NCBI GenBank assembly: GCA_964535385.1
Contig: CAZHSY010000003.1
Location: 18,529 to 82,528, forward strand
Direction: 5' to 3'
DNA length: 64,000 nt
Origin: an uncultured Candidatus Saccharibacteria bacterium
GTDB taxonomy: Bacteria > Patescibacteriota > Saccharimonadia > CAILAD01 > GCA-016700035
Below, piece after piece: positions 6,556 through 59,801 of the stretch (position 1 is the first letter of the stretch; the number at the start of each line of letters is the position of its first letter). Under the pieces are notes generated by a model that ran no database searches, was not told the origin of the DNA, and saw nothing but the letters and a program-made list of their open reading frames with translations. The translations under genes and the position numbers were made by a program.

Positions 6556-6923
6556 GAGGCAGCCTCCGCCTTCTTAGGAGCTTTAGATTTTGCAGGAGTC
6601 TTCTTGGTAGCTTTTTTATTACTAAAAGCCGACACTTTGAAAACGCGTTCCTTCACACCCGAGGCATTTAGCTTGTAGCTGACACGAGCTGGTTTATTGG
6701 TCTTAGGATCTAAAACCTGGACCTTCGATACATCAAGTGGTCGTGATACTTCGACAATGCCACCACGAGGATTGCTCTGAGTTGGCTTCATGTGGCGCTT
6801 GGCAATATTAATATTATCGACCACGATCTTATTGGCCTTAGGAAGAATAGCGATAATCTCACCAGTCTTGCCTTTGTCGCGACCAGCCGTCACCATAACT
6901 TTATCTTTAAGTTTAAGCTTCAT
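6552..6923 (-). CDS. rplX: 50S ribosomal protein L24
   Basis: KOW motif and a Lys-rich C-terminal tail. Confidence 0.9.
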   Translation of the reverse strand: MKLKLKDKVMVTAGRDKGKTGEIIAILPKANKIVVDNINIAKRHMKPTQSNPRGGIVEVSRPLDVSKVQVLDPKTNKPARVSYKLNASGVKERVFKVSAFSNKKATKKTPAKSKAPKKAEAAS

Positions 6924-7291
6924 TAGAGAACCTCCGGCGCGAGTGAAACAATTTTCATATAGCCACGGTCACGCAGTTCGCGTGCGACTGGCCCAAAGAT
7001 ACGGGTGCCTCGTGGCTGACCCTGCTTATCAATGATGACAGCCGCATTCTCATCGAATCGAATTGAACTACCGTCAGCTCGCTGGGTTGGCTTAACGCTA
7101 CGCACCACGACTGCCTGAACGACTTCTTTTTTCTTGACAGTTCCGTTTGGAGTAGCCTGCTTAACTGAAGCGGTAATAATATCACCGACTGCAGCATAGC
7201 GACGTTTACTGCCGCCAAGCACCTTGATGCACATGATTTTCTTAGCACCAGTGTTGTCGGCCAAACGCAAAACTGTCTGTGGCTGAATCAT
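6923..7291 (-). CDS. rplN: 50S ribosomal protein L14
   Basis: 122-aa ORF beginning [18 protein letters not shown], a typical L14 N-terminus. Confidence 0.95.
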
Positions 7292-11335: not shown

Positions 11336-11952
11336 CGGGTACTTCCTTGAATAAGAATTAAGCCTTTACGAGGACCAGGTACGGCACCCTTAATCGCAAT
11401 GAGGTTTTTGGCTGGATCAATCTGTATAACACGAAGGTTCTGAACGGTAACATTGTCATGACCCATACGACCGGCCATTTTCATACCCTTCATGACGTGC
11501 TGTGGATAACCAGCACCGATCGAGCCAGGCGCTCGGTAATTGTGAGAGCCATGAGTCTTCGGGCCACGATGGAAATTATGACGCTTAATCGTACCAGCAA
11601 AGCCTTTACCTTTACTGATACCGCTAACGACTACCTTATCGCCAATTTCAAAATTCTCAACCGTGATGGTGTCGCCGACCTTAAGGGCTCCGTCTGGCTC
11701 AACTTCAGTGGTTCTAACTTCTCGAATAGTCTTGGAGTGAGCACCACTGGTTTTGAGGTGACCAGCCTTGGACTTGCCAATCTTCTTATCTTCACCATAG
11801 CCAATTTGAGTCGCGCTGTAGCCATCGGTCTCGATAGTTTTAATCTGCGTAACCACACATGGACCAGCCTGCAACACAGTAACTGGCTGCAAGCGACCTT
11901 GGTCGTTATAGAGTTGGGTCATGCCCACTTTTTTAGCAAGAATAGCTTTCAT
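11332..11952 (-). CDS. rplC: 50S ribosomal protein L3
   Basis: 206-aa ORF beginning MKAILAKKVGMTQ, a typical L3 N-terminus. Confidence 0.95.
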   Translation of the reverse strand: MKAILAKKVGMTQLYNDQGRLQPVTVLQAGPCVVTQIKTIETDGYSATQIGYGEDKKIGKSKAGHLKTSGAHSKTIREVRTTEVEPDGALKVGDTITVENFEIGDKVVVSGISKGKGFAGTIKRHNFHRGPKTHGSHNYRAPGSIGAGYPQHVMKGMKMAGRMGHDNVTVQNLRVIQIDPAKNLIAIKGAVPGPRKGLILIQGSTR

Positions 11953-12065
11953 AGAGTTTTTGATTATGCGCTTCTCAAAAGAAACGCTGGCAAGCGCGGG
12001 ACCGGTTTCCCACCTTCTGGAGGGACCTGGGCGCTTCCCAGAACTTTCATAAAGTCAACTTAAAT

Positions 12066-12094
12066 AGTCTACAGGTTATTACCAGGAGTGTCAA
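12066..12094 (-). promoter_or_regulatory. Candidate sigma-70-type promoter for rplC (TTGACA-N17-TAGACT in the minus sense), followed by a structured 5' UTR of about 110 nt
   Basis: Found by reading the reverse complement of 12062–12094. The UTR contains nested GC-rich inverted repeats (GAAGCGC…GCGCTTGCC). Confidence 0.4.
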
Positions 12095-12202
12095 CCCAGA
12101 ATATAAACTTCTGATCCATCTATTACTAATTATTGACTCGTACTAAAATTAATGTTTGAATAGTATGGTTATACGTCATTGCTCAATCATAAAGGAGCCC
12201 CC

Positions 12203-12589
12203 TTGAGCACCCAGACAGAGCACCTCGCCATCGATTTCGCTCATCCCCTCATCGTGCGTTGCGAAAACGGCGTGCCGGTACACATCGTCATGACCGTTTG
12301 CGATGGAACTGACTCGCGCATCAAGTACCCAGTCTACCTGAAGGACGAACATCCGGCCATCGAAAGCATCGTCAACAAACTGACGCTCGATCGCCTCGGC
12401 CGCAATATCCATCTCATGGGCCCGATCACGGTCAATGCCGACAACCCCCAGGATCTCCTTCGGCGACTGCGCAACCAGGTGCAGGACAACTTCAAGACCG
12501 TCAACCAACTCCCTCAGACCGATGCTCGCATCAACCGCATCATCGACTATGTCAGGTTGGCCCTGGAGCGCTTCTTCCCCGAGGCTTGA
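12203..12589 (+). CDS. Hypothetical protein (128 aa) in a higher-GC insertion between rpsJ and rplC
   Basis: TTG start preceded by AAGGAG with 5-nt spacing. The ORF-track start is 12179. GC is about 56% by eye, against about 50% in the flanking genes. An intrinsic terminator follows. No family was recognised. Confidence 0.55.
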   Translation: MSTQTEHLAIDFAHPLIVRCENGVPVHIVMTVCDGTDSRIKYPVYLKDEHPAIESIVNKLTLDRLGRNIHLMGPITVNADNPQDLLRRLRNQVQDNFKTVNQLPQTDARINRIIDYVRLALERFFPEA

Positions 12590-12605
12590 GCAAGCCTCAT
12601 TCCCT

Positions 12606-12643
12606 GCCACCTCCACCCCGTGTGAAGGTGGCGCATTTTTTTT
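12606..12643 (+). terminator. Intrinsic terminator (stem GCCACCT/AGGTGGC followed by T8)
   Basis: Hairpin plus a T-run directly after the plus-strand ORF. Confidence 0.6.
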
Positions 12644-12660
12644 ACTAAAAAACTCTCGCT

Positions 12661-12872
12661 CGCGTACATTCTGGTACGGTGTCGATCCTACCTGGCGGTA
12701 AAGGGTTCTTCTGAGTGATGCTAGGTAATAAACCTCCTAAACTGGAAAAGGCCTGTTTAGGAGAATGCTGCAATAGACAAACAGAAAAGCAGATCGTAAG
12801 GCGTACATGGTGGTACGGTGTCGATCTGCTTTTCTAGTTTAACGACTTACAGCGCCTGATATAACAGGCCGA
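12661..12872. repeat. Structured intergenic repeat, copy C1, lying between the rpsJ stop and the insertion
   Basis: Contains two GCGTAC-N6-GGTACGGTGTCGATC cores, at 12661–12686 and 12799–12824. Block GGGTTCTTCTGAGTGATGCTAGGT lies at 12702–12725. A perfect 12-bp inverted repeat (GAAAAGCAGATC/GATCTGCTTTTC) flanks the second core. An outer inverted repeat is GGCCTGTT/AACAGGCC. Aligns block-for-block with C2. Confidence 0.7.
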
Positions 12873-12875
12873 AAG

Positions 12876-13196
12876 TTACATTTTGATTTCAATATCCACG
12901 CCGGCTGGCAGCGACAAATTCATAAGGTTATCAATGGTCTTCGGAGTCGGTTCGGTGATATCAATCAACCGCTTGTGGGTTCGCATCTCAAAGGTCTCTT
13001 GGCTGTCTTTGAAAATGTGCGGGCTACGCACCACGGTAGTGGTGTTGCGATCAGTTGGTAGCGGTACGGGGCCAGCGACTTGAGCGCCGGTCCGTACGGC
13101 TGTATCAATGATCTGCTTAGCTGACTGATCAATGACCTTGTTGTCATAGGCCTTGAGTCGGATGCGAATGCGTTGAGCGGTTTTTTCGTTCGGCAT
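12876..13196 (-). CDS. rpsJ: 30S ribosomal protein S10
   Basis: 106-aa ORF resembling S10. It starts 5 nt after the tuf stop. Confidence 0.95.
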
Positions 13197-16913: not shown

Positions 16914-17267
16914 ATGCGTACCAAGACAAGTAAGCAATTTCGACTCCTCGCCGTCGCCATCATGGCGACGCTCGGCGGACTGACCTTCGGGGTCAGCAAC
17001 GCTGGTGCGGCGAGCAGCTTCCTCAGGAATGACAAGTGGCTGGCGGTCTACTCGCCTGCCTGTGGTGCCATCGGCTGCCCCTATGGTCCGGGCTATATGG
17101 TCAAGGACAATACGGGATTCACGATGGTGTGCTGGGCAGATGGCCCCTGGGTGAACGGCAACTACAACACCAACCGCTGGTTCCGTGGCCGTGTCAACGG
17201 CATCAGTGGTCAGGTCTGGGTCCCGGCATCCTACGTCTTCAATCAGACGCGAGTCGGCCACTGCTGA
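16914..17267 (+). CDS. Small secreted Cys-containing protein (117 aa), possibly SH3b-like
   Basis: N-terminal signal peptide (MRTKTSKQFRLLAVAIMATLGGLTFGVSNAGAASS). The mature part has Cys and Gly/Trp-rich segments ending …GQVWVPASYV, reminiscent of bacterial SH3 domains. A GAGGAG ribosome-binding site precedes it. GC is about 58% by eye. Confidence 0.6.
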   Translation: MRTKTSKQFRLLAVAIMATLGGLTFGVSNAGAASSFLRNDKWLAVYSPACGAIGCPYGPGYMVKDNTGFTMVCWADGPWVNGNYNTNRWFRGRVNGISGQVWVPASYVFNQTRVGHC

Positions 17268-33780: not shown

Positions 33781-33865
33781 TATCAATATCTGGTGCGGAT
33801 GAAAGGACTTGAACCTTCACGCCTTGCGGCACCAGCTCCTAAGGCTGGCGTGTCTACCAATTCCA
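33781..33865 (-). tRNA. tRNA-Leu (anticodon TAG), type II with a long variable arm and an encoded CCA
   Basis: Reverse complement is GCGGATGTGGTGGAATTGGTAGACACGCCAGCCTTAGGAGCTGGTGCCGCAAGGCGTGAAGGTTCAAGTCCTTTCATCCGCACCA. Cloverleaf stems were identified by eye. The anticodon loop is CTTAGGA. Confidence 0.85.
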
Positions 33866-33875
33866 CCACATCCGC

Positions 33876-51956: not shown

Positions 51957-52313
51957 ATGCCCTCAGACATCATGGCGCTCGCAATTGCCAAGTTCGAATA
52001 CAGGCAAACCGGCTTCAAGGTCAATCAAGAAAATGCCGTCATCACTGGCGTACTGAACAGCGACAGAAGAATCCAGATACTTAAGGCCTGGCCGGTGAAT
52101 GGCCAAGTCGATCTCAACCGCACTATCGGGCATTTGCTTGAGGATATGAAAGCCATGAGCAGCGACTACACCCTGTGCGCAACTGGCGCCCGAGGATATC
52201 GCTTCCAAGGCGAAACCATCGAAGGCGTTGCCATCATCGCTTGTCTCGAGGGCGGCGATTGGCATGAGCTTGATGATGAAATAATTCGCCAGGCTGGCCT
52301 ACTACTAGTCTGA
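51957..52313 (+). CDS. Small cytoplasmic protein (118 aa), possibly Roadblock/LC7 (MglB-like) fold
   Basis: Length and the βαββα pattern. No partner small-GTPase gene is nearby. Low-confidence family call. Confidence 0.4.
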   Translation: MPSDIMALAIAKFEYRQTGFKVNQENAVITGVLNSDRRIQILKAWPVNGQVDLNRTIGHLLEDMKAMSSDYTLCATGARGYRFQGETIEGVAIIACLEGGDWHELDDEIIRQAGLLLV

Positions 52314-53370: not shown

Positions 53371-56300
53371 TCACTCTACTAAAACAGCATCTTCGTTCAC
53401 AACAACTGCTAACTGCTTAGTCAATTTCTGAGACACCGCCACCCTGAACGGCAAGCGAATTTTCTGACCAGTGCTCGAGAGTTGCAGGATAGTCTCAGTG
53501 TCGCCAGGAGCGGCTTGCAAGATGCCCTTGAGACGAATTAAGGATACCTGATCCTTCAGGTCTACCAGCGTCACGATCAAACGGTCAGCTGCCTGTACAG
53601 CGTCGGGTGCAATCTCAACTGTCTGACCTTCACCAGTCGCAATGTAGTGCTTGAGGACGTTCGGATCAAGCGGCTTAGCCTTATCAACCGCAATCTTCAC
53701 TTCTTCGACCAGATTATTGTCGCGATCCCGGGCATTCACCTTGCCATGTACGGCCACCAACCTATCCTCTACCCACAGATCTGGCGTAGCCTCATAGGCC
53801 TTCGGGAAGACAAGTAACTCGATATCCCCTCGGACTGTCTCCAGCCCAACAAAAGCCATGGAGTCGCCTTTTTTTGTCAGGATTTTGCGCACTGTCGTAA
53901 TCACACCGCCCACAGTCACCTTCTGACCATCCATACCAGACTTAATATCATCAGCTGGCATAGTTTTTTCACTCAACCAGGCCTGGATATCACGTAAAGG
54001 ATGGCTGGTGAGATACATGCCAAGCAGCTCCTTCTCCCATAATGCGAGCTCTTTGTCCTCTAATGGTGTAGTCGGTGGTTCGAGTGGTAAGGGTGGCATC
54101 TCCTCGGCGATCCCCATACTACCGAAGATATCAATCTGACCAGACAGGGCGTTCTTCTGAGCCTTCGACATATAGGCCACAATGCGCTCTAGATTATTAA
54201 GTAGCGTGCCGCGATCGCCAACTGCATCGAAAGCTCCGACCTTGGTCAAAGCTTCGAGCGTCTTGCGGTTGAGCTCGCGGGCATCAACTCGCAAGACGAA
54301 GTCCTCGATTGTCTTAAACGGCCCGTCTTCTCGAGCGCTCAAGATGGCGTTAATTGGACCAAGCCCAACATTCTTCACTGCCGCCAGACCAAAGCGAATC
54401 TGATCCTTGCCGGCTTCATCTTTGACAACAGCAAATTCCGAGTACGACTCGTTAATATCAGGTGGGAGGATGGCGATATCCATCTTGCGACACTCCGCAA
54501 TCTCAATCGCCACCCGATCAAGGTTGCCATGATCACTGGTGAGGAGCGCGGCCATGAAGGCGGCTGGATAATGTGCCTTAAGATAAGCTGTTTGCACGGC
54601 AATCAGGGCGTAACAAGCGGCGTGGGATTTATTAAAACAATACGCTGCAAAATCTTCGATCGACGACCACAAGCTCTCGACCCATGCTCGGTCGGCATCG
54701 GAGTGCTTAATAGCCCCTTCGATGAAATCAGCCTTCATCTTAGCAATCACTTCTGGAATCTTCTTACCAATACCCTTACGCAAGGTGTCAGCCTGACCGC
54801 CAGTGAAACCACACAGGTCTTTTGAGATCTGCATGACTTGCTCCTGGTAGACGATAATGCCGTAGGTTTCAGCCAAGGCGTCTTTCATCTTCTCATGCTC
54901 GTAGGTAATACGGTCAGGGTTATGTTTACGCTTAATGAAGTCATCGATCCACTGCATCGGTCCCGGGCGATAGAGTGCTACCATGGCGATAATATCCTCG
55001 AAGCGATCGGGCTTGAGATCGCGGATGTAGCGCTTCATGCCGGCTGATTCAAGCTGGAAGACGCCCGTCGTTTCGGCTCGCGCAAGCAGCTCATAGGTAG
55101 CTTTGTCGTCGATCGGAATCTCCGATACATCGATATCTCGTCCGTAGACACGTTTAATAATTCGCAAGGCATTTTTAATGACCGTGAGGTTAGACAGACC
55201 CAAAAAGTCGAATTTCAGAAGTCCTAGATCTTCAACGGTTGTCCCGACGAACTGAGTCGAAACACCACCCTTCGAAGCTCGTGTCAGCGGCAGATATTCC
55301 ACTAGAGGATCTGGTGCAATCACTACGCCAGCCGCGTGAGTGCCAGCGTTTCCGATAGTACCTTCAAGCTGAACTGCGATATCGATGAGGCGCTTAGCGC
55401 GCGGATTGCTCTCATATTCATGCTTGAGCTCAGGCACTTCCTTGATCGATTTCTCGAGCGGGATATGCCGACCCTGAACTGGAGCTGGCACCATCTTGGC
55501 CAGGACATCGACCTCGCCGTAAGGCATGGCCAGCACTCGACCAGTGTTGCGCACGGCGTTACGGGCGGCCATGGTGCCGAAAGTGATGATTTGGGCCACA
55601 TGATCCTGGCCGTACTTCTCGGTAGCATACGCAATAACTTCATCGCGGCGGTCGTCGGCGTAATCCATATCAATATCAGGCATTGAAATGCGATCTGGGT
55701 TCAGGAAACGCTCGAAGAGCAAGTCGTACTTGAGAGGATCAAGATCAGTAATATTTGTGACAAATGCCACGATCGAACCAGCTGCCGAACCGCGACCAGG
55801 CCCGCAGATAATACCTTGATTCTTCGACCAGTTAATGAGATCGGCCACGATCAAGAAATAACCGTCATAGCCCATGCGCGCGATGACCTCGAGCTCGTAC
55901 TCGATGCGCTCTAAGACATTGGTCGGGAGTTTTGCCTTGGCTTTTGCCTCATCGTAGTGAGAGATGTCCTCCTTCGGGATATCTCCATAGCGCCACATCG
56001 CCCCTTGATACACCAGGCGCCGCAAGTAATCACGCTCATTGTCTCCTTCTGGAACTTCGAAGGTCGGAATGAGAATCTTGCCAAGCTCGATTTCTAGGTT
56101 ACAGCGCTCGGCAATTTTCACCGTATTCGCCAAGGCCTCGGGGTCATTTGGAAAGCGCTCGGCAATAGTAGAACCGTCGTGAATCGACAGATCCTGGTCG
56201 AGCTTGAAGCGCTTAGGATCTTCGATGGTCGAGCCCGTCTGCACGCACAGCAAAATATCATGGGCATAGTGCTGGGACTCCTTTGAGTAGTGAGCATCAC

Positions 56301-56967
56301 CGGTCACAACCAAACCAAGGTCGAGTTCTTTGGATAGCTGACGCAGGCCGGCATTGACCTTGTCTTGTGGCTCCCAACCGATATGCGGCTGCATTTCGAG
56401 GAAGTAATTATCCTTGCCGAAGACTGAACTATACCACTCGGCCGTTTCCTTAGCTGAGGCGTAGTTGTCAGCCAAGATACTTGAGCCAACCTCGCCACCG
56501 ATACAGCCCGTCAGAGCAATCAAGCCCTCATGGTATTTCTCGAGCAACTCACGATCTACCCGCGGCTTGTAGTAGAAACCTTCAAGGCAAGCAATGGTCG
56601 AGAGTTTGATTAAATTTTTATAGCCAGTTTCGTTCTGAGCTAAGAGCGTCAAGTGATACGGCGTGCGGTCTTCGCGCGTTGACTTATCGGTGTGTTTGCG
56701 GGCGGCTACATAGGCCTCCATGCCAATAATGGGCTTAATACCCCGCTTCTGGCATTCCTTGTAGAACTCAATCACTCCCGATAGAGTGCCGTGGTCAGTG
56801 ATAGCCACCGCAGTTTGGCCGAGCTTTTGCACCCAATCAAGCATCTGCGGAACCTTCTGAAGACCATCAAGCAGTGAATAGTGGGTGTGATTATGGAGGT
56901 GCACAAAATCAACAGTCGGTGCTGCCGTTTTAGACTCCTTGACTACCATATCGCCCTCCTTCGCCAT
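53371..56967 (-). CDS. dnaE: DNA polymerase III alpha subunit
   Basis: 1198-aa ORF with an N-terminal PHP domain (HLHNHTHYSLLDG), a polymerase core and an OB fold. Confidence 0.97.
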   Translation of the reverse strand: MAKEGDMVVKESKTAAPTVDFVHLHNHTHYSLLDGLQKVPQMLDWVQKLGQTAVAITDHGTLSGVIEFYKECQKRGIKPIIGMEAYVAARKHTDKSTREDRTPYHLTLLAQNETGYKNLIKLSTIACLEGFYYKPRVDRELLEKYHEGLIALTGCIGGEVGSSILADNYASAKETAEWYSSVFGKDNYFLEMQPHIGWEPQDKVNAGLRQLSKELDLGLVVTGDAHYSKESQHYAHDILLCVQTGSTIEDPKRFKLDQDLSIHDGSTIAERFPNDPEALANTVKIAERCNLEIELGKILIPTFEVPEGDNERDYLRRLVYQGAMWRYGDIPKEDISHYDEAKAKAKLPTNVLERIEYELEVIARMGYDGYFLIVADLINWSKNQGIICGPGRGSAAGSIVAFVTNITDLDPLKYDLLFERFLNPDRISMPDIDMDYADDRRDEVIAYATEKYGQDHVAQIITFGTMAARNAVRNTGRVLAMPYGEVDVLAKMVPAPVQGRHIPLEKSIKEVPELKHEYESNPRAKRLIDIAVQLEGTIGNAGTHAAGVVIAPDPLVEYLPLTRASKGGVSTQFVGTTVEDLGLLKFDFLGLSNLTVIKNALRIIKRVYGRDIDVSEIPIDDKATYELLARAETTGVFQLESAGMKRYIRDLKPDRFEDIIAMVALYRPGPMQWIDDFIKRKHNPDRITYEHEKMKDALAETYGIIVYQEQVMQISKDLCGFTGGQADTLRKGIGKKIPEVIAKMKADFIEGAIKHSDADRAWVESLWSSIEDFAAYCFNKSHAACYALIAVQTAYLKAHYPAAFMAALLTSDHGNLDRVAIEIAECRKMDIAILPPDINESYSEFAVVKDEAGKDQIRFGLAAVKNVGLGPINAILSAREDGPFKTIEDFVLRVDARELNRKTLEALTKVGAFDAVGDRGTLLNNLERIVAYMSKAQKNALSGQIDIFGSMGIAEEMPPLPLEPPTTPLEDKELALWEKELLGMYLTSHPLRDIQAWLSEKTMPADDIKSGMDGQKVTVGGVITTVRKILTKKGDSMAFVGLETVRGDIELLVFPKAYEATPDLWVEDRLVAVHGKVNARDRDNNLVEEVKIAVDKAKPLDPNVLKHYIATGEGQTVEIAPDAVQAADRLIVTLVDLKDQVSLIRLKGILQAAPGDTETILQLSSTGQKIRLPFRVAVSQKLTKQLAVVVNEDAVLVE

Positions 56968-57007
56968 TACTTACTATTGTACGCGTTATCCCCAAGCATT
57001 TTAAGGC

Positions 57008-57037
57008 TTGTCAAAGGAAGTTTAGAGCGCGTATAGT
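57008..57037 (+). promoter_or_regulatory. Candidate promoter TTGTCA-N18-TATAGT driving the plus-strand island
   Basis: Good -35 and -10 match. Divergent from dnaE. Confidence 0.5.
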
Positions 57038-57077
57038 GCAAAATACCACTCGCACCTATCAGGAAGAGGTACCCGCC

Positions 57078-57449
57078 ATGTCTCATAAGGTGACAGAAAT
57101 TCCTAAGCACACGGTTGTCGAGTACTGCTTCGCTACCCCGGATCGTCGAATCTTGATGATTCCTATCGTCGCCGGAGCCATGGCCATAACTGGCTGCGGC
57201 TTTTTCATAGGCGTCTTTGGGGCTGAGGGTTCGCAGCTCGGTTGGCTGACGACCTTCCTGGCGAGCTGCTTGTCGGCTTGCAGTCTTTATCTCTTGCTGA
57301 CCTGGGATACAATCATGCAGGGGCGTCGTAGCGGTGACCGTAAATCAAGCCCCCTGCTCCGACCCTTGCTGGCGACATACCTGTACTTCTCCATCCTCAC
57401 GGCGGGCCTCAGCCTCTACTGGCTGGCTGAACTCACGCCTGCGCAATAA
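57078..57449 (+). CDS. Hypothetical membrane protein (123 aa)
   Basis: Start at MSHKVTEIP with ribosome-binding site GGAAGAGG. Two to three hydrophobic helices. High GC. Confidence 0.55.
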   Translation: MSHKVTEIPKHTVVEYCFATPDRRILMIPIVAGAMAITGCGFFIGVFGAEGSQLGWLTTFLASCLSACSLYLLLTWDTIMQGRRSGDRKSSPLLRPLLATYLYFSILTAGLSLYWLAELTPAQ

Positions 57450-57550
57450 TCCCTATTACTTGCTGTCCCTGATTCGTCAGGGACATTTACATAAGTAAAT
57501 TGATATTATATAATAATTACTTCGCACCTAGACGTAAGGAGAAGTCTATC

Positions 57551-58195
57551 ATGACACCGACAGTTTTGCCGCCCCGACTTGATCGATCAACTGCCCTAGC
57601 TGGCTTCGAAGCCACTCGGCGTTGGCTGAACGCTCGTGGGCTCAACTGGCTGGCTCACTCAATCGCGGTCTTTATCGACACAAGTGAGAACATCGTGTTC
57701 GAGCACAGAGGCACCAAGGCTTCGGACCGCATCGACGACGTTCGGACCGATGCACAGCTGGTGCTCGCCAATAGAGCGATGAATGTTCCGATCGTTCGTC
57801 CGGTCACCGACTTGAACGGCCGCTTCATTGGCATGGTCGCCTGCTCGCTGGCTTCGAACAACCAGACCCAGCCGCTGGCGTCACTGCTAGCTGAATTCAC
57901 GCGAGACCCCAATGAGAACTCCCCATTCATGGATCTCCTCATCGAGGAGGTTTTCCTGGAGAACGACTGGGATCTACCGAGTGATTGGCCCCACCGTCCA
58001 CTGCCAGCAACCGACACTGCCTCTTCCCAAGCTGGCTTGCAAGCCCTGATCACAGGTGCAGCCCAAGCTGGGCTACTACACTCTCAGAGCTATGGCGTGC
58101 CTCCCCTGGAAACCGCACCAGCCACACCAGGGCAAGCTGGTCTCCCTTCTGAGATCGTAGATATTCCCGGCTTCGGCGGCGGAATCCTCTCATAG
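57551..58195 (+). CDS. Hypothetical protein (214 aa) with a Pro/Gly-rich C-terminal tail; N-terminal part possibly GAF-like
   Basis: Start at MTPTVLPP with ribosome-binding site TAAGGAG. High GC, about 58% by eye. Confidence 0.5.
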   Translation: MTPTVLPPRLDRSTALAGFEATRRWLNARGLNWLAHSIAVFIDTSENIVFEHRGTKASDRIDDVRTDAQLVLANRAMNVPIVRPVTDLNGRFIGMVACSLASNNQTQPLASLLAEFTRDPNENSPFMDLLIEEVFLENDWDLPSDWPHRPLPATDTASSQAGLQALITGAAQAGLLHSQSYGVPPLETAPATPGQAGLPSEIVDIPGFGGGILS

Positions 58196-58347
58196 ATCTT
58201 ATTGATTAGATGGAGCGACAAGAGCTCCATTCAAGTGGGTACCCCTGTGGTACCCACTTTTTCATAAGTGACCACTCCATCTACTCGTAATCGACCTATC
58301 GATCCGATACCATGACCTGCTAGCAGTCTCACCTTACGGAAGGAAGC

Positions 58348-58816
58348 ATGAATGACTCAGGAGTATTCCCGCTATTCGACACCACCCCACCATTACCTAC
58401 CGATCAGCACTGGCTGGCTTGCGTCAGCTGGAGACCTGCCTCGGCATACTTGGGCTTGACTGGCTCGATCGCGCCTACATTGCCTGGGTGGATGATTCAA
58501 TCCAACTGGTTTTGGCAATTTCTGGACAACGCACCTTCGAACTCGGTAACGCTCTAGCTAGTCAATTAGCTCGGGACACATGCGGCAAGTCGAGCCAGCG
58601 CCTGGTGTCGAGTACCTACTCGATAATAATGGCGCTATAGTTGGTACTGTTTGCGTGCTGTGTCACGACTCGGCCATTGAGAGAGCCCTATCCATCCTCG
58701 CGACAGAGTGTACAATCAATCCGCATCATTCAATCGAGATGATCCCCAACGACACCCGTCAAGCCTTAGCTGAACGCTTGACTGAACTACCCGACGGCTG
58801 GCGATTCAAGCACTAG
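58348..58816 (+). pseudogene. Probable frameshifted gene: three overlapping ORFs in three frames (58348..58557, 58419..58640, 58580..58816)
   Basis: A strong ribosome-binding site (GGAAGGAAG) precedes only the first ATG. Successive ORFs overlap end-to-start in different frames, consistent with two frameshifts in a single ancestral ORF of about 155 aa. Confidence 0.45.
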
Positions 58817-58858
58817 AATAGACATTTTAGTCTACAGGAGATCGATTCAGATTCGTTA

Positions 58859-58889
58859 CCACCCCTTGGTTGAGAGGGGTGGTTTTTTA
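58859..58889 (+). terminator. Intrinsic terminator (CCACCCCT-N8-AGGGGTGG followed by T6) ending the plus-strand island
   Basis: Perfect 8-bp GC-rich stem plus a T-run. Confidence 0.7.
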
Positions 58890-59195
58890 TGGCTGTGGTT
58901 GCACGGTTGGCTTTGGCACGTTGTCATTTAGATCGTTCACGAAATTACCCACCCAGGGTACGCCGCCAAAAATAACTACGAGGTAGCCGATCAACACGAC
59001 AGCCAAGGCCACGCCGACCACACCACCAATTCCCCGATACACCCCAGCCCTAAAATTAAGCCAAGCAAATTTTCGTCTATTTTCAAGCAGCTCAATAAAT
59101 TCAGCTGACGCAAATATATTAGCTACTCTTGTAGCTTCTGAAAGGTCAGTTGCTGAGGATGCTTTCTTCGAGGATGGTTTCGAGCGCGTAGCCAT
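58887..59195 (-). CDS. Hypothetical membrane protein (102 aa)
   Basis: One or two transmembrane helices (GIGGVVGVALAVVLIGYLVVIFGG). Confidence 0.5.
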   Translation of the reverse strand: MATRSKPSSKKASSATDLSEATRVANIFASAEFIELLENRRKFAWLNFRAGVYRGIGGVVGVALAVVLIGYLVVIFGGVPWVGNFVNDLNDNVPKPTVQPQP

Positions 59196-59216
59196 TGTGG
59201 TCTAGTGAGGAAATAA

Positions 59217-59801
59217 CTATCGTTTCTTAGTTGTAGCCTTCTTGGCCGTTGCAGTTGTCTTCTTAGCGGCCTTCGCGGCAGTATTCTTGGCTGTATTGGC
59301 GGCTTTCCTGACGGCTTGAGTAGCTTTCTTGGTAGTCACTTCAGCTTCTTCGGCTACAGAATCAGTCGACTTCTTAACTGCTGTGGCGGCTTTCTTAACT
59401 TCACGACTCGTACTCGTGCCGAGCTGCTTGGCTAAGACGTCGAGCTCTTCAATCAGGCCACGGCCTTCTTCCACCAGGCGTCCAGCCTCGCCTACCACGT
59501 CTTCTTGAGAATCTTGAGCAACACTGCTCATTTTGAGAGCCGTCGCATTCAGCTGCTCTTTCATACGCTCAGCCCGCTTAATTAAGGCCTTGGTTTCTTT
59601 AACTGAGTCGTCTTTGACACGTACACTAGAGACTTTAATCTGATCAAGTGTGGTGCCGAGACGATCTTTGACTTCATCAAAATTCTTCTGCAGGTCATCA
59701 CGAGTTTCTTTGCCGCTCTTCGGAGCAAATAGTAATGCTGCCAGGCCAGCCGCAGCCGCACCGATGATTGTTCCCTTGATAAATCCGCCTTTTTTGCTCA
59801 T
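59217..59801 (-). CDS. YtxH-like stress protein: N-terminal transmembrane or amphipathic segment plus Ala/Lys-rich coiled-coil repeats
   Basis: GG-rich hydrophobic N-terminus followed by a long helical region with repetitive KKAAT(A)V tracts. The ORF-track start is 59831. Confidence 0.55.
   Translation of the reverse strand: MSKKGGFIKGTIIGAAAAGLAALLFAPKSGKETRDDLQKNFDEVKDRLGTTLDQIKVSSVRVKDDSVKETKALIKRAERMKEQLNATALKMSSVAQDSQEDVVGEAGRLVEEGRGLIEELDVLAKQLGTSTSREVKKAATAVKKSTDSVAEEAEVTTKKATQAVRKAANTAKNTAAKAAKKTTATAKKATTKKR

Follow-up and report, generated by a model that had tools for sequence, protein, structure and literature searches.

Those proteins of the DUF336 family that have been characterised bind or sense small molecules: extracellular heme in the case of HbpS, formaldehyde in that of EfgA, a cytoplasmic sensor that arrests growth, and both heme and cobalamin in that of PduO-C, and the formation of homo-oligomers is a further property of the family (PMC8153426). 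Here, we analyse a 64-kb stretch of Saccharibacteria DNA (the window), in which a block of plus-strand genes lies between dnaE and a gene for a DUF5665 protein, at a site that we refer to as the slot. The block comprises ORF1, an open reading frame (ORF) for a small membrane protein, ORF2, which encodes a soluble protein of 214 amino acids (aa), and gene 3, whose coding sequence is scattered over three frames (Table 1). According to the explanation we favour, which as a whole has a probability of about 0.72, the slot is variable in its content and here holds three small, separately terminated plus-strand genes. ORF2 is its single-copy resident in one clade of Saccharibacteria and has an N-terminal domain predicted to adopt a DUF336/GlcG/HbpS/EfgA-like fold, and gene 3 is a pseudogene of a tail-less ORF2 paralog, broken by two frame-disrupting indels.

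The predicted N-terminal domain of ORF2 resembles the DUF336 family (PF03928) in its size (~135-145 residues) and alpha/beta topology, but shares no detectable sequence similarity with it and is followed by an extra conserved tail of 65 residues, which was found on no other protein in the fetched DNA. Unlike HbpS, ORF2 has no signal peptide, and whereas GlcG, PduO and OrfY are encoded in metabolic operons, ORF2 lies outside any. A further difference from the DUF336 family is its restriction to a single Saccharibacteria clade, in which it evolves very fast.

The ORF2 family and its place beside dnaE

Judged by the first 450 residues of its DnaE, the organism belongs to the Saccharibacteria, with best matches of 83-86% identity among species representatives, and the closest relative found is a metagenome contig (L084) whose DnaE N-terminus is 90.7% identical to that of the window. 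While a single-sequence database search with ORF2 returned the query itself only, homologs surfaced through synteny-guided tblastn and profile searches. A family profile gave 10 matches in a database of 5.8 billion proteins, and an exhaustive scan of 1.84 billion cluster representatives with a hidden Markov model (HMM) gave 12 family representatives. Pfam, NCBIfam, PADLOC and PHROGs yielded nothing meaningful for ORF2, and a tblastn search of phage and plasmid collections returned no match.

In all 13 lineages with readable context, the ORF2 family gene sits in the slot beside the DUF5665 gene, with dnaE on the other side wherever the contig extends far enough. The slot homologs (L005, L007, L008, L009, L010, L011, L084, L087, L088, L089 and L090) are encoded on the strand opposite dnaE, and when the family HMM and a separate tail HMM were run over 2.16 Mb of fetched Saccharibacteria-like DNA, they detected slot genes only, once per genome, gene 3 excepted. 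Homologs were found only in genomes in which the N-terminus of DnaE shares 83-91% identity with that of the window, the named ones being metagenome-assembled genomes of Saccharibacteria or Patescibacteria. In L084, a 36%-identical ORF2 homolog and an ORF1 homolog are both in place, and gene 3 is absent. The surrounding gene order, GatB-MscS-p88-YtxH-DUF5665-[slot]-dnaE, is kept in ~50 Saccharibacteria loci; in distant relatives (DnaE at most 77% identical), the slot usually measures ~100 bp or contains an unrelated small gene.

The ORF2 product is acidic (pI 4.7), has no transmembrane segment and is predicted to be cytoplasmic; its motifs and length are conserved across 19 family sequences. 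Two AlphaFold runs, based on alignments of 10 and 19 sequences, produced the same alpha-beta-beta-alpha-beta-beta-alpha-alpha N-terminal domain (residues ~10-140), followed by a helix (159-172) and a disordered end, with block-mean confidence values (pLDDT) for the domain of 70-95 and 86-97, respectively. For both models, the first 16 Foldseek matches in the PDB were all DUF336 structures, led by EfgA (6BWS), OrfY (2A2L), 4NKP, HbpS (3FPV/3FPW/4BMW) and NahX (9JTH), with PduO-C (5CX7) just below (E 1e-5 to 1e-3, probability 1.0, TM scores of 0.55-0.64 over the whole target, identity 11-17%). Weaker matches were GAF-like sensor domains. Independently of this analysis, one family member (P0014) carries a JGI label as GlcG, a name that belongs to the DUF336 family.

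The 65-residue tail is disordered and proline-rich and contains the motifs SSQAGL, which falls in the helix, YGVPPL and a terminal PGFGGG. It is the best-conserved part of the family: SSQ-GL, YGVP-L and PGFGGG are invariant in the ten closest members, in which the domain has diverged to ~30% identity. By analogy with HbpS and EfgA, the N-terminal domain would bind a small ligand, such as a tetrapyrrole or a reactive metabolite, and the conserved tail would dock the protein onto a conserved cellular partner, thereby relaying the ligand signal. We thus infer that ORF2 may be a cytoplasmic ligand-binding domain with a linear-motif tail that contacts a conserved partner.

ORF2 is vertically inherited and evolves rapidly

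Comparisons between genomes showed that the ORF2 family is vertically inherited in the slot and under purifying selection, with an amino-acid change ~8-13 times that of dnaE. Between L009 and L010, ORF2 has a nonsynonymous divergence (dN) of 0.086 and a synonymous divergence (dS) of 0.63 (dN/dS 0.135), and the dN values of dnaE and MscS are 0.010 and 0.053. Between the window and L084, dN declines from 0.72 for ORF2 to 0.35 for ORF1, 0.21 for the DUF5665 gene, 0.15 for YtxH, 0.10 for both MscS and GatB, and 0.055 for dnaE; in either comparison, ORF2 exceeds dnaE by a factor of about 8-13. Among 36 genome pairs, identity within the family increases with that of DnaE (Spearman 0.47, p 0.003), as illustrated by DnaE/family identities of 97.8/84%, 96/54%, 95/55%, 94.5/44% and 91/36-42%, and the pair formed by the window and L084 (90.7/36%) fits the trend of other pairs at equal DnaE distance.

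The slot itself is a hotspot at which relatives have gained transposon-borne and ATPase genes. In L008 (526-7285), the ORF2 ortholog is split between ...SLMT and EADN... by an insert of ~5.9 kb, which leaves its N-terminal part at 6652-7173 and its C-terminal part at 622-765; P0017 represents the uninterrupted allele of this gene. The insert encodes an IS1595-family transposase, a Replic_Relax/TrmB-like protein, an HTH-SocA/Panacea antitoxin with a small partner ORF, a PfkB kinase and an MBL-fold protein. Two other contigs (L007, 5930-8403; L011, 7439-9879) carry an extra conserved pair of slot genes with about 55-63% G+C (GC) content, coding for proteins of 565 aa and 240-248 aa. The larger one has an N-terminal HATPase_c_3 (GHKL) domain and gave weak PADLOC matches to TmtA, and its partner has no family match; the pair may constitute a defence-like or mobile module. 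In L004 (9070-9843), an unrelated 257-aa gene with 60% GC replaces ORF2.

Other small-gene families occur in the slot of more distant Saccharibacteria, one of 120 aa (L031, 9506-9868; L040, 298-666; L042, 9493-9855) and one of 166-189 aa (L019, 1795-2364; L020, 524-1024). Like the gene in L004, they are encoded on the strand opposite dnaE, at a GC content of 57-60% compared with 46-53% for their loci. Both families were considered as remote relatives of ORF2 and rejected, with profile-profile probabilities below 1%.

A receptive site of this kind could also be the scene of exchange. In such a scenario, ORF2 would not be strictly vertical, with divergent alleles being swapped among related Saccharibacteria via homologous recombination in the dnaE/DUF5665 flanks, GC-biased gene conversion keeping the GC content at third codon positions (GC3) high, and gene 3 representing a captured second allele. 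The IS1595-bearing insert, the GHKL-ATPase pair and the different gene in L004 would be in line with this history, as would the mere 36% identity of ORF2 at a DnaE identity of 91%, the locus-specific GC3 excess that is maintained across genomes, and the fact that gene 3 is no nearer to ORF2 (22% identity) than to members from other lineages (26% to both P0024 and P0025). We nevertheless consider it unlikely: in the close genome pairs listed above, from 97.8/84% down to 94.5/44%, the divergence of the family is proportionate to that of DnaE without a single discordant pair, a test that is weak for the saturated deeper pairs, and the family is single-copy everywhere but in the lineage of the window.

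Vertical residence of ORF2 in the slot, as favoured here, leaves room for a further-reaching and rather improbable proposal, namely that the family forms an unrecognised clade-specific branch of the DUF336 fold, that its tail couples ligand sensing to a conserved partner, and that the persistent GC3 excess marks a distinct class of genes. If so, two candidate roles would fit the evidence. One would involve the replication machinery, given that ORF2 and dnaE are divergently oriented on every contig long enough to include both. The other would be an export route, in which case ORF2 might be a fast-evolving host-interaction factor of epibionts. The rapid evolution of ORF2 would then mirror adaptation to host-derived signals, and the GC3 excess that it shares with other small opposite-strand genes would be the mark of a lineage-specific gene class in Saccharibacteria. 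The consensus for beta-clamp binding is QL[SD]LF; the QAGLxAL stretch of the tail, as judged by eye, does not fit it, and we make no claim to this effect.

Gene 3, ORF1 and the layout of the block

When translated in three frames, gene 3 displays one continuous similarity to ORF2, which passes from frame 1 to frame 0 and then to frame 2. An HMM built from 19 ORF2-family proteins, with gene 3 excluded, was run over the full set of 1806 stop-to-stop fragments in the window and recovered ORF2 (E 3e-68), a frame-0 fragment (58356-58637; E 7.9e-10, profile positions 7-78) and a frame-2 fragment (58562-58813; E 8e-4, profile positions 81-136), with no other fragment below E = 1. With BLASTP, ORF2 matched the fragments of gene 3 no more than marginally (E 0.002), and the third ORF not at all, so that it is the family HMM that establishes the paralogy; no meaningful match to these fragments emerged from Pfam, NCBIfam, PADLOC or PHROGs. 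Consecutive positions of the profile thus match in two different frames, in agreement with the preliminary description of this sequence, which had noticed three ORFs overlapping in three frames and taken them for a decaying gene.

Frame 0 of gene 3 offers no start codon before a TTG at 58419, and the sole ATG with a Shine-Dalgarno (SD)-like sequence (58348) is in frame 1. A junction scan located the first shift between 58356 and 58389, with a C4 run (58385-58388) as candidate site, and the second between 58577 and 58616; either shift corresponds to the loss of 1 nt. The repaired protein (156 aa; E 5e-15 to 2e-17) consists of the N-terminal domain only and stops before the family tail. As in tandem paralog pseudogenisation, the ordinary decay of genes in reduced genomes, gene 3 is a divergent extra copy beside an intact paralog, with two frame-shifting indels and no obvious promoter; nothing about it is unusual except its tail-less form, which exists intact in the slot of at least one other genome (P0025, 160 aa). 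The frames in use contain no in-frame stop yet, suggesting that the pseudogene is probably young. The duplicated sensor domain would have been dispensable and would now be decaying.

The three-frame pattern could, alternatively, be a sequencing or assembly artefact, or reflect two programmed -1 ribosomal frameshifts that give a full-length protein. Consistent with these possibilities, the two shifts share their direction (-1), the first interval includes a C4 run, and the used frames are still free of stops. However, both are very unlikely. Over 9-16 kb, gene 3 included, contigs from SRR10761723, SRR10761721 and SRR12404947 show 100% identity to the window; the frameshifts, whose read support the preliminary description had wanted re-checked, thus recur in three read sets that were assembled separately and whose accessions belong to at least two series, and are unlikely to be sequencing errors. 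Moreover, no slippery heptamer of the form X XXY YYZ is visible at either interval, the consensus scan found no promoter-like site upstream of gene 3 (58196-58347), and the absence of the gene from L084 means that there is no conservation pointing to programmed frameshifting.

As for ORF1, hydropathy indicates two strong transmembrane-like segments (residues 24-49 and 56-75) and a weaker third. A single-sequence search of the 5.8-billion protein database gave only the self-match, and no meaningful family assignment came from Pfam, NCBIfam, PADLOC or PHROGs, the one PHROGs match covering 23 residues of a family of unknown function. The homolog in L084, in the same position, is 58% identical and has kept its length although synonymous sites are saturated, and among the relatives found, ORF1 is common to the window and L084 only. 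A 113-aa membrane protein encoded beside the ORF2 ortholog of L009 was considered as a relative and rejected, since it shows no similarity. ORF1 and gene 3 are best seen as lineage-specific additions around the resident ORF2. Gene callers differ in the start of ORF1, GTG 57036 (137 aa, ENA) or ATG 57078 (123 aa, NCBI/Logan). The latter is likelier, because the GTG overlaps the -10 hexamer of the upstream promoter-like site P1 and the ATG is preceded by the SD-like sequence GGAAGAGG.

The preliminary description had portrayed the block as a plus-strand island amid mostly minus-strand genes, in an organism that could be a Saccharibacteria-like epibiont, with its own promoter (TTGTCA-N18-TATAGT) and a strong terminator, and with two leading ORFs that have good SD sites and encode a membrane protein and a 214-aa proline-rich protein. 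Most of this portrait holds. The minus strand carries 52 of the 57 long non-overlapping ORFs of the window, AG-rich SD-like sequences precede both ORF1 and ORF2, the organism does belong to the Saccharibacteria, and the two products are as stated, the proline-rich part of the second being its tail. The promoter is present as site P1, and the terminator at the end of the block is stable (dG -19.4 kcal/mol, z -3.4). What does not hold is the single operon that these two elements would delimit. A hairpin follows ORF1 (dG -16.6 kcal/mol, z -4.5 relative to shuffled sequences; fold of 57450-57500), a double hairpin follows ORF2 (dG -30.8 kcal/mol, z -5.4; fold of 58196-58270), and a second promoter-like site, P2, lies in front of ORF2. 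Given a stable hairpin after each gene and P2 before ORF2, the block appears to comprise three transcription units and not a single one, with P1 and P2 being promoter-like by their match to the consensus. An Rfam search of 56800-59300 gave no match.

Table 1. Positions of the block, its elements and the other genes discussed, given in window coordinates.
Feature	Position	Strand	Description
ORF	12203-12589	+	between rpsJ and rplC; 128-136 aa; GC3 0.77
ORF	16914-17267	+	between fusA and Clp-like ATPase gene; 117 aa; GC3 about 0.76-0.77
ORF	51957-52313	+	between L19 and guanylate-kinase genes; 118 aa; GC3 0.61
dnaE	53371-56967	-	start at 56967; left flank of slot
Plus-strand block	57008-58889	+	between dnaE and DUF5665 gene
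Promoter-like site P1	57008-57037	+	TTGTCA-N18-TATAGT; 10/12 positions in consensus scan; divergent dnaE/ORF1 intergenic region
ORF1	57078-57449	+	123 aa; membrane
Hairpin after ORF1	57464-57485	+	GUCCCUGAU...CAGGGAC; weak terminator candidate without strong T run
Promoter-like site P2	57486-57514	+	TTTACA-N17-TATAAT; 11/12 positions; upstream of ORF2; best site in region
ORF2	57551-58195	+	214 aa
Two adjacent hairpins after ORF2	58209-58259	+	second (58233-58259), 11-bp stem then short U run, is a terminator candidate
Gene 3	58348-58816	+	three overlapping ORFs in three frames
Gene 3 component ORFs	58348-58557, 58419-58640, 58580-58816	+	three different frames
Intrinsic terminator	58858-58883	+	10-bp G+C-rich stem, 6-nt loop, T6 tail; abuts DUF5665 stop codon
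DUF5665 gene	58887-59195	-	convergent with block; Pfam E 2e-9

A near-identical strain is represented in other samples by two ENA metagenome contigs (L091 and L092), in which the ORF1-ORF2 region differs by one change in ~1.5 kb, C to A at 57909 (P120H in ORF2); both contigs stop before gene 3.

Base composition and the question of recent transfer

The block had been described as having a GC content of ~58%, a value that ORF2 alone reaches (about 58.5-58.7%); the block as a whole has 53.6%, with 56.3% in ORF1, 53.3% in gene 3, and 35% and 47% in its two internal spacers. Among 1882-bp segments of the 64 kb, it does have the highest GC content, and 0.6% of sliding windows are as high, but as an outlier it reaches a z of only 2.3 (mean 49.8%, standard deviation 1.6%). 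GC3 amounts to 0.67 for ORF1 (z 2.75), 0.62 for ORF2 (z 1.95) and 0.56 for gene 3 (z 0.9), compared with 0.51 +/- 0.06 for the genes of the window, a reference that consists of a single 64-kb stretch rich in highly expressed genes. Relative to the GC3 expected from amino-acid composition under the window's own codon usage, ORF2 shows an excess of 0.13 (0.62 vs 0.49) and ORF1 one of 0.15 (0.67 vs 0.52), at a reference standard deviation of 0.047 for observed minus expected values. The amino-acid-based expected GC content of ORF2 is 53.9% (reference genes 50.6 +/- 1.9%) and the observed one 58.7%, so that amino-acid composition accounts for ~40% of its excess relative to the reference genes and GC3 for the remainder. 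The compositional excess is thus real but moderate, due in part to amino-acid composition and in part to codon choice, and the GC3 component is common to all small plus-strand ORFs of the window.

The orthologs of ORF2 mostly share this excess. Their GC content is 53-64% and their GC3 0.57-0.69, at locus backgrounds of ~46-51% in most cases; in L007 and L011, where the background is 54%, the excess is small, and one family member (P0019, in L090) has a GC content of 49.7%. Since the excess persists across most genomes despite saturated synonymous sites, it appears to be a long-standing property of the family and not the trace of an un-ameliorated recent import.

These findings bear on the interpretation offered in the preliminary description, according to which the whole block is a recent acquisition whose donor had a high GC content and may have been an actinobacterial host. 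Like horizontally acquired genomic islands, the block lies on the strand opposite its neighbours, has a higher GC content than its surroundings, contains genes that are ORFan-like in standard searches, and occupies a slot into which foreign DNA has been inserted in relatives. One could also cite that it forms the highest-GC stretch of the window and that the GC3 of ORF1 and ORF2 is well above the amino-acid-based prediction. Unlike such islands, it has a core gene that is found at the same site clade-wide, in 12 other lineages besides the window, together with ORF1 in L084, and that diverges in proportion to dnaE. No donor emerged either: exhaustive searches revealed no ORF2 homolog outside the clade, and the only 10-12 family representatives, where context is readable, are all Saccharibacteria slot genes. 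The best matches thus come from close relatives, an outcome named beforehand as speaking against transfer. The sharing of the GC excess by orthologs in most other genomes, at saturated synonymous sites, is the opposite of a transient signal that precedes amelioration. Furthermore, neither ORF inspection nor Pfam revealed an integrase or other mobility gene in the block, the sole tRNA gene of the window is distant (33791-33875), and the flanks show only chance-level repeat matches of 12-29 nt, with no long or att-like repeat among them. Recent transfer is therefore largely refuted and has a very small residual probability. It follows that the block fails as an example of host-to-epibiont gene transfer, which is worth knowing before it is cited as one, and that raised GC content combined with ORFan status is insufficient evidence of recent transfer in these genomes. 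What remains is an unannotated family of one Saccharibacteria clade that combines a conserved tail with a sensor domain of DUF336 type, predicted with confidence, and that is locked beside dnaE and evolving ~10 times faster than its neighbours.

The notion that ORF1 and ORF2 are chance open frames in a GC-rich spacer, for which one could cite the lack of Pfam, NCBIfam and PADLOC matches, and for ORF2 also of PHROGs matches, and the long spurious ORFs that high GC content yields on both strands (e.g. 57655-58053, minus strand), is highly improbable and already refuted for ORF2 by its dN/dS of 0.135, the motifs and length conserved in 19 sequences and the confident, reproducible fold prediction, with ORF1 retaining 58% identity and its length at saturated synonymous sites and both genes possessing SD-like sequences and end hairpins.

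Several points weigh against the explanation favoured here, in which ORF2 is a vertically inherited resident of the slot with a DUF336-like domain and gene 3 is its decayed paralog. With regard to descent, family identities saturate at 25-36% beyond ~9% DnaE divergence, so that the test for vertical inheritance is powerful for close pairs only. In addition, two genomes with ~86% DnaE identity (L004 and L006, the slot of the latter being only partly covered) have no detectable ORF2 homolog, indicating that ORF2 is sometimes lost or replaced, and there may have been some horizontal exchange among clade members. Concerning the fold, the Pfam model for DUF336 gave no match to ORF2 and, even at E <= 10, none to 10 members of the family, a profile search of PDB sequences gave no DUF336 chain, and the assignment derives from predicted models with TM scores of ~0.6 and a root-mean-square deviation of ~4 A; the function put forward for ORF2 would, in turn, follow from analogy. 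Finally, the three read sets that contain the gene 3 frameshifts may not be fully independent of the deposited assembly, and the favoured explanation does not account for the persistent GC3 excess.

This excess is not peculiar to the block. The window contains three further small plus-strand genes (Table 1), two of which had been grouped with the block as imports. Neither of these two (12203-12589 and 16914-17267) has a family match in Pfam, PHROGs or NCBIfam, and neither has a homolog in 80 rplC-centred metagenome loci. The product of 16914-17267 has a signal-peptide-like N-terminus, and an ORF of 131 aa overlaps its gene on the other strand; the suggestion that it is SH3b-like found no backing in these family searches. 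The gap between rpsJ and rplC in the S10 operon, which harbours 12203-12589 and measures ~920 bp in the window (11952-12876), varies from 200 to 6300 bp among 38 metagenome loci of relatives. Three of those that are closest by L3 identity have, in this gap, an opposite-strand ORF of 130-140 aa with a GC3 of 0.57-0.73 (L094, 1672-2094; L095, 9336-9728; L096, 9263-9682), with no detectable homology to the ORF of the window. Small, opposite-strand, GC3-rich genes that evolve fast and are positionally stable seem to be general in the clade, and this pattern alone is no sign of recent transfer. The third gene, 51957-52313, follows the same fast-evolving, positionally stable pattern as ORF2: in L084 (169-531), it has a homolog in the same position that is only 35% identical, compared with 85-91% for housekeeping genes in the neighbourhood, GatB and DnaE among them.

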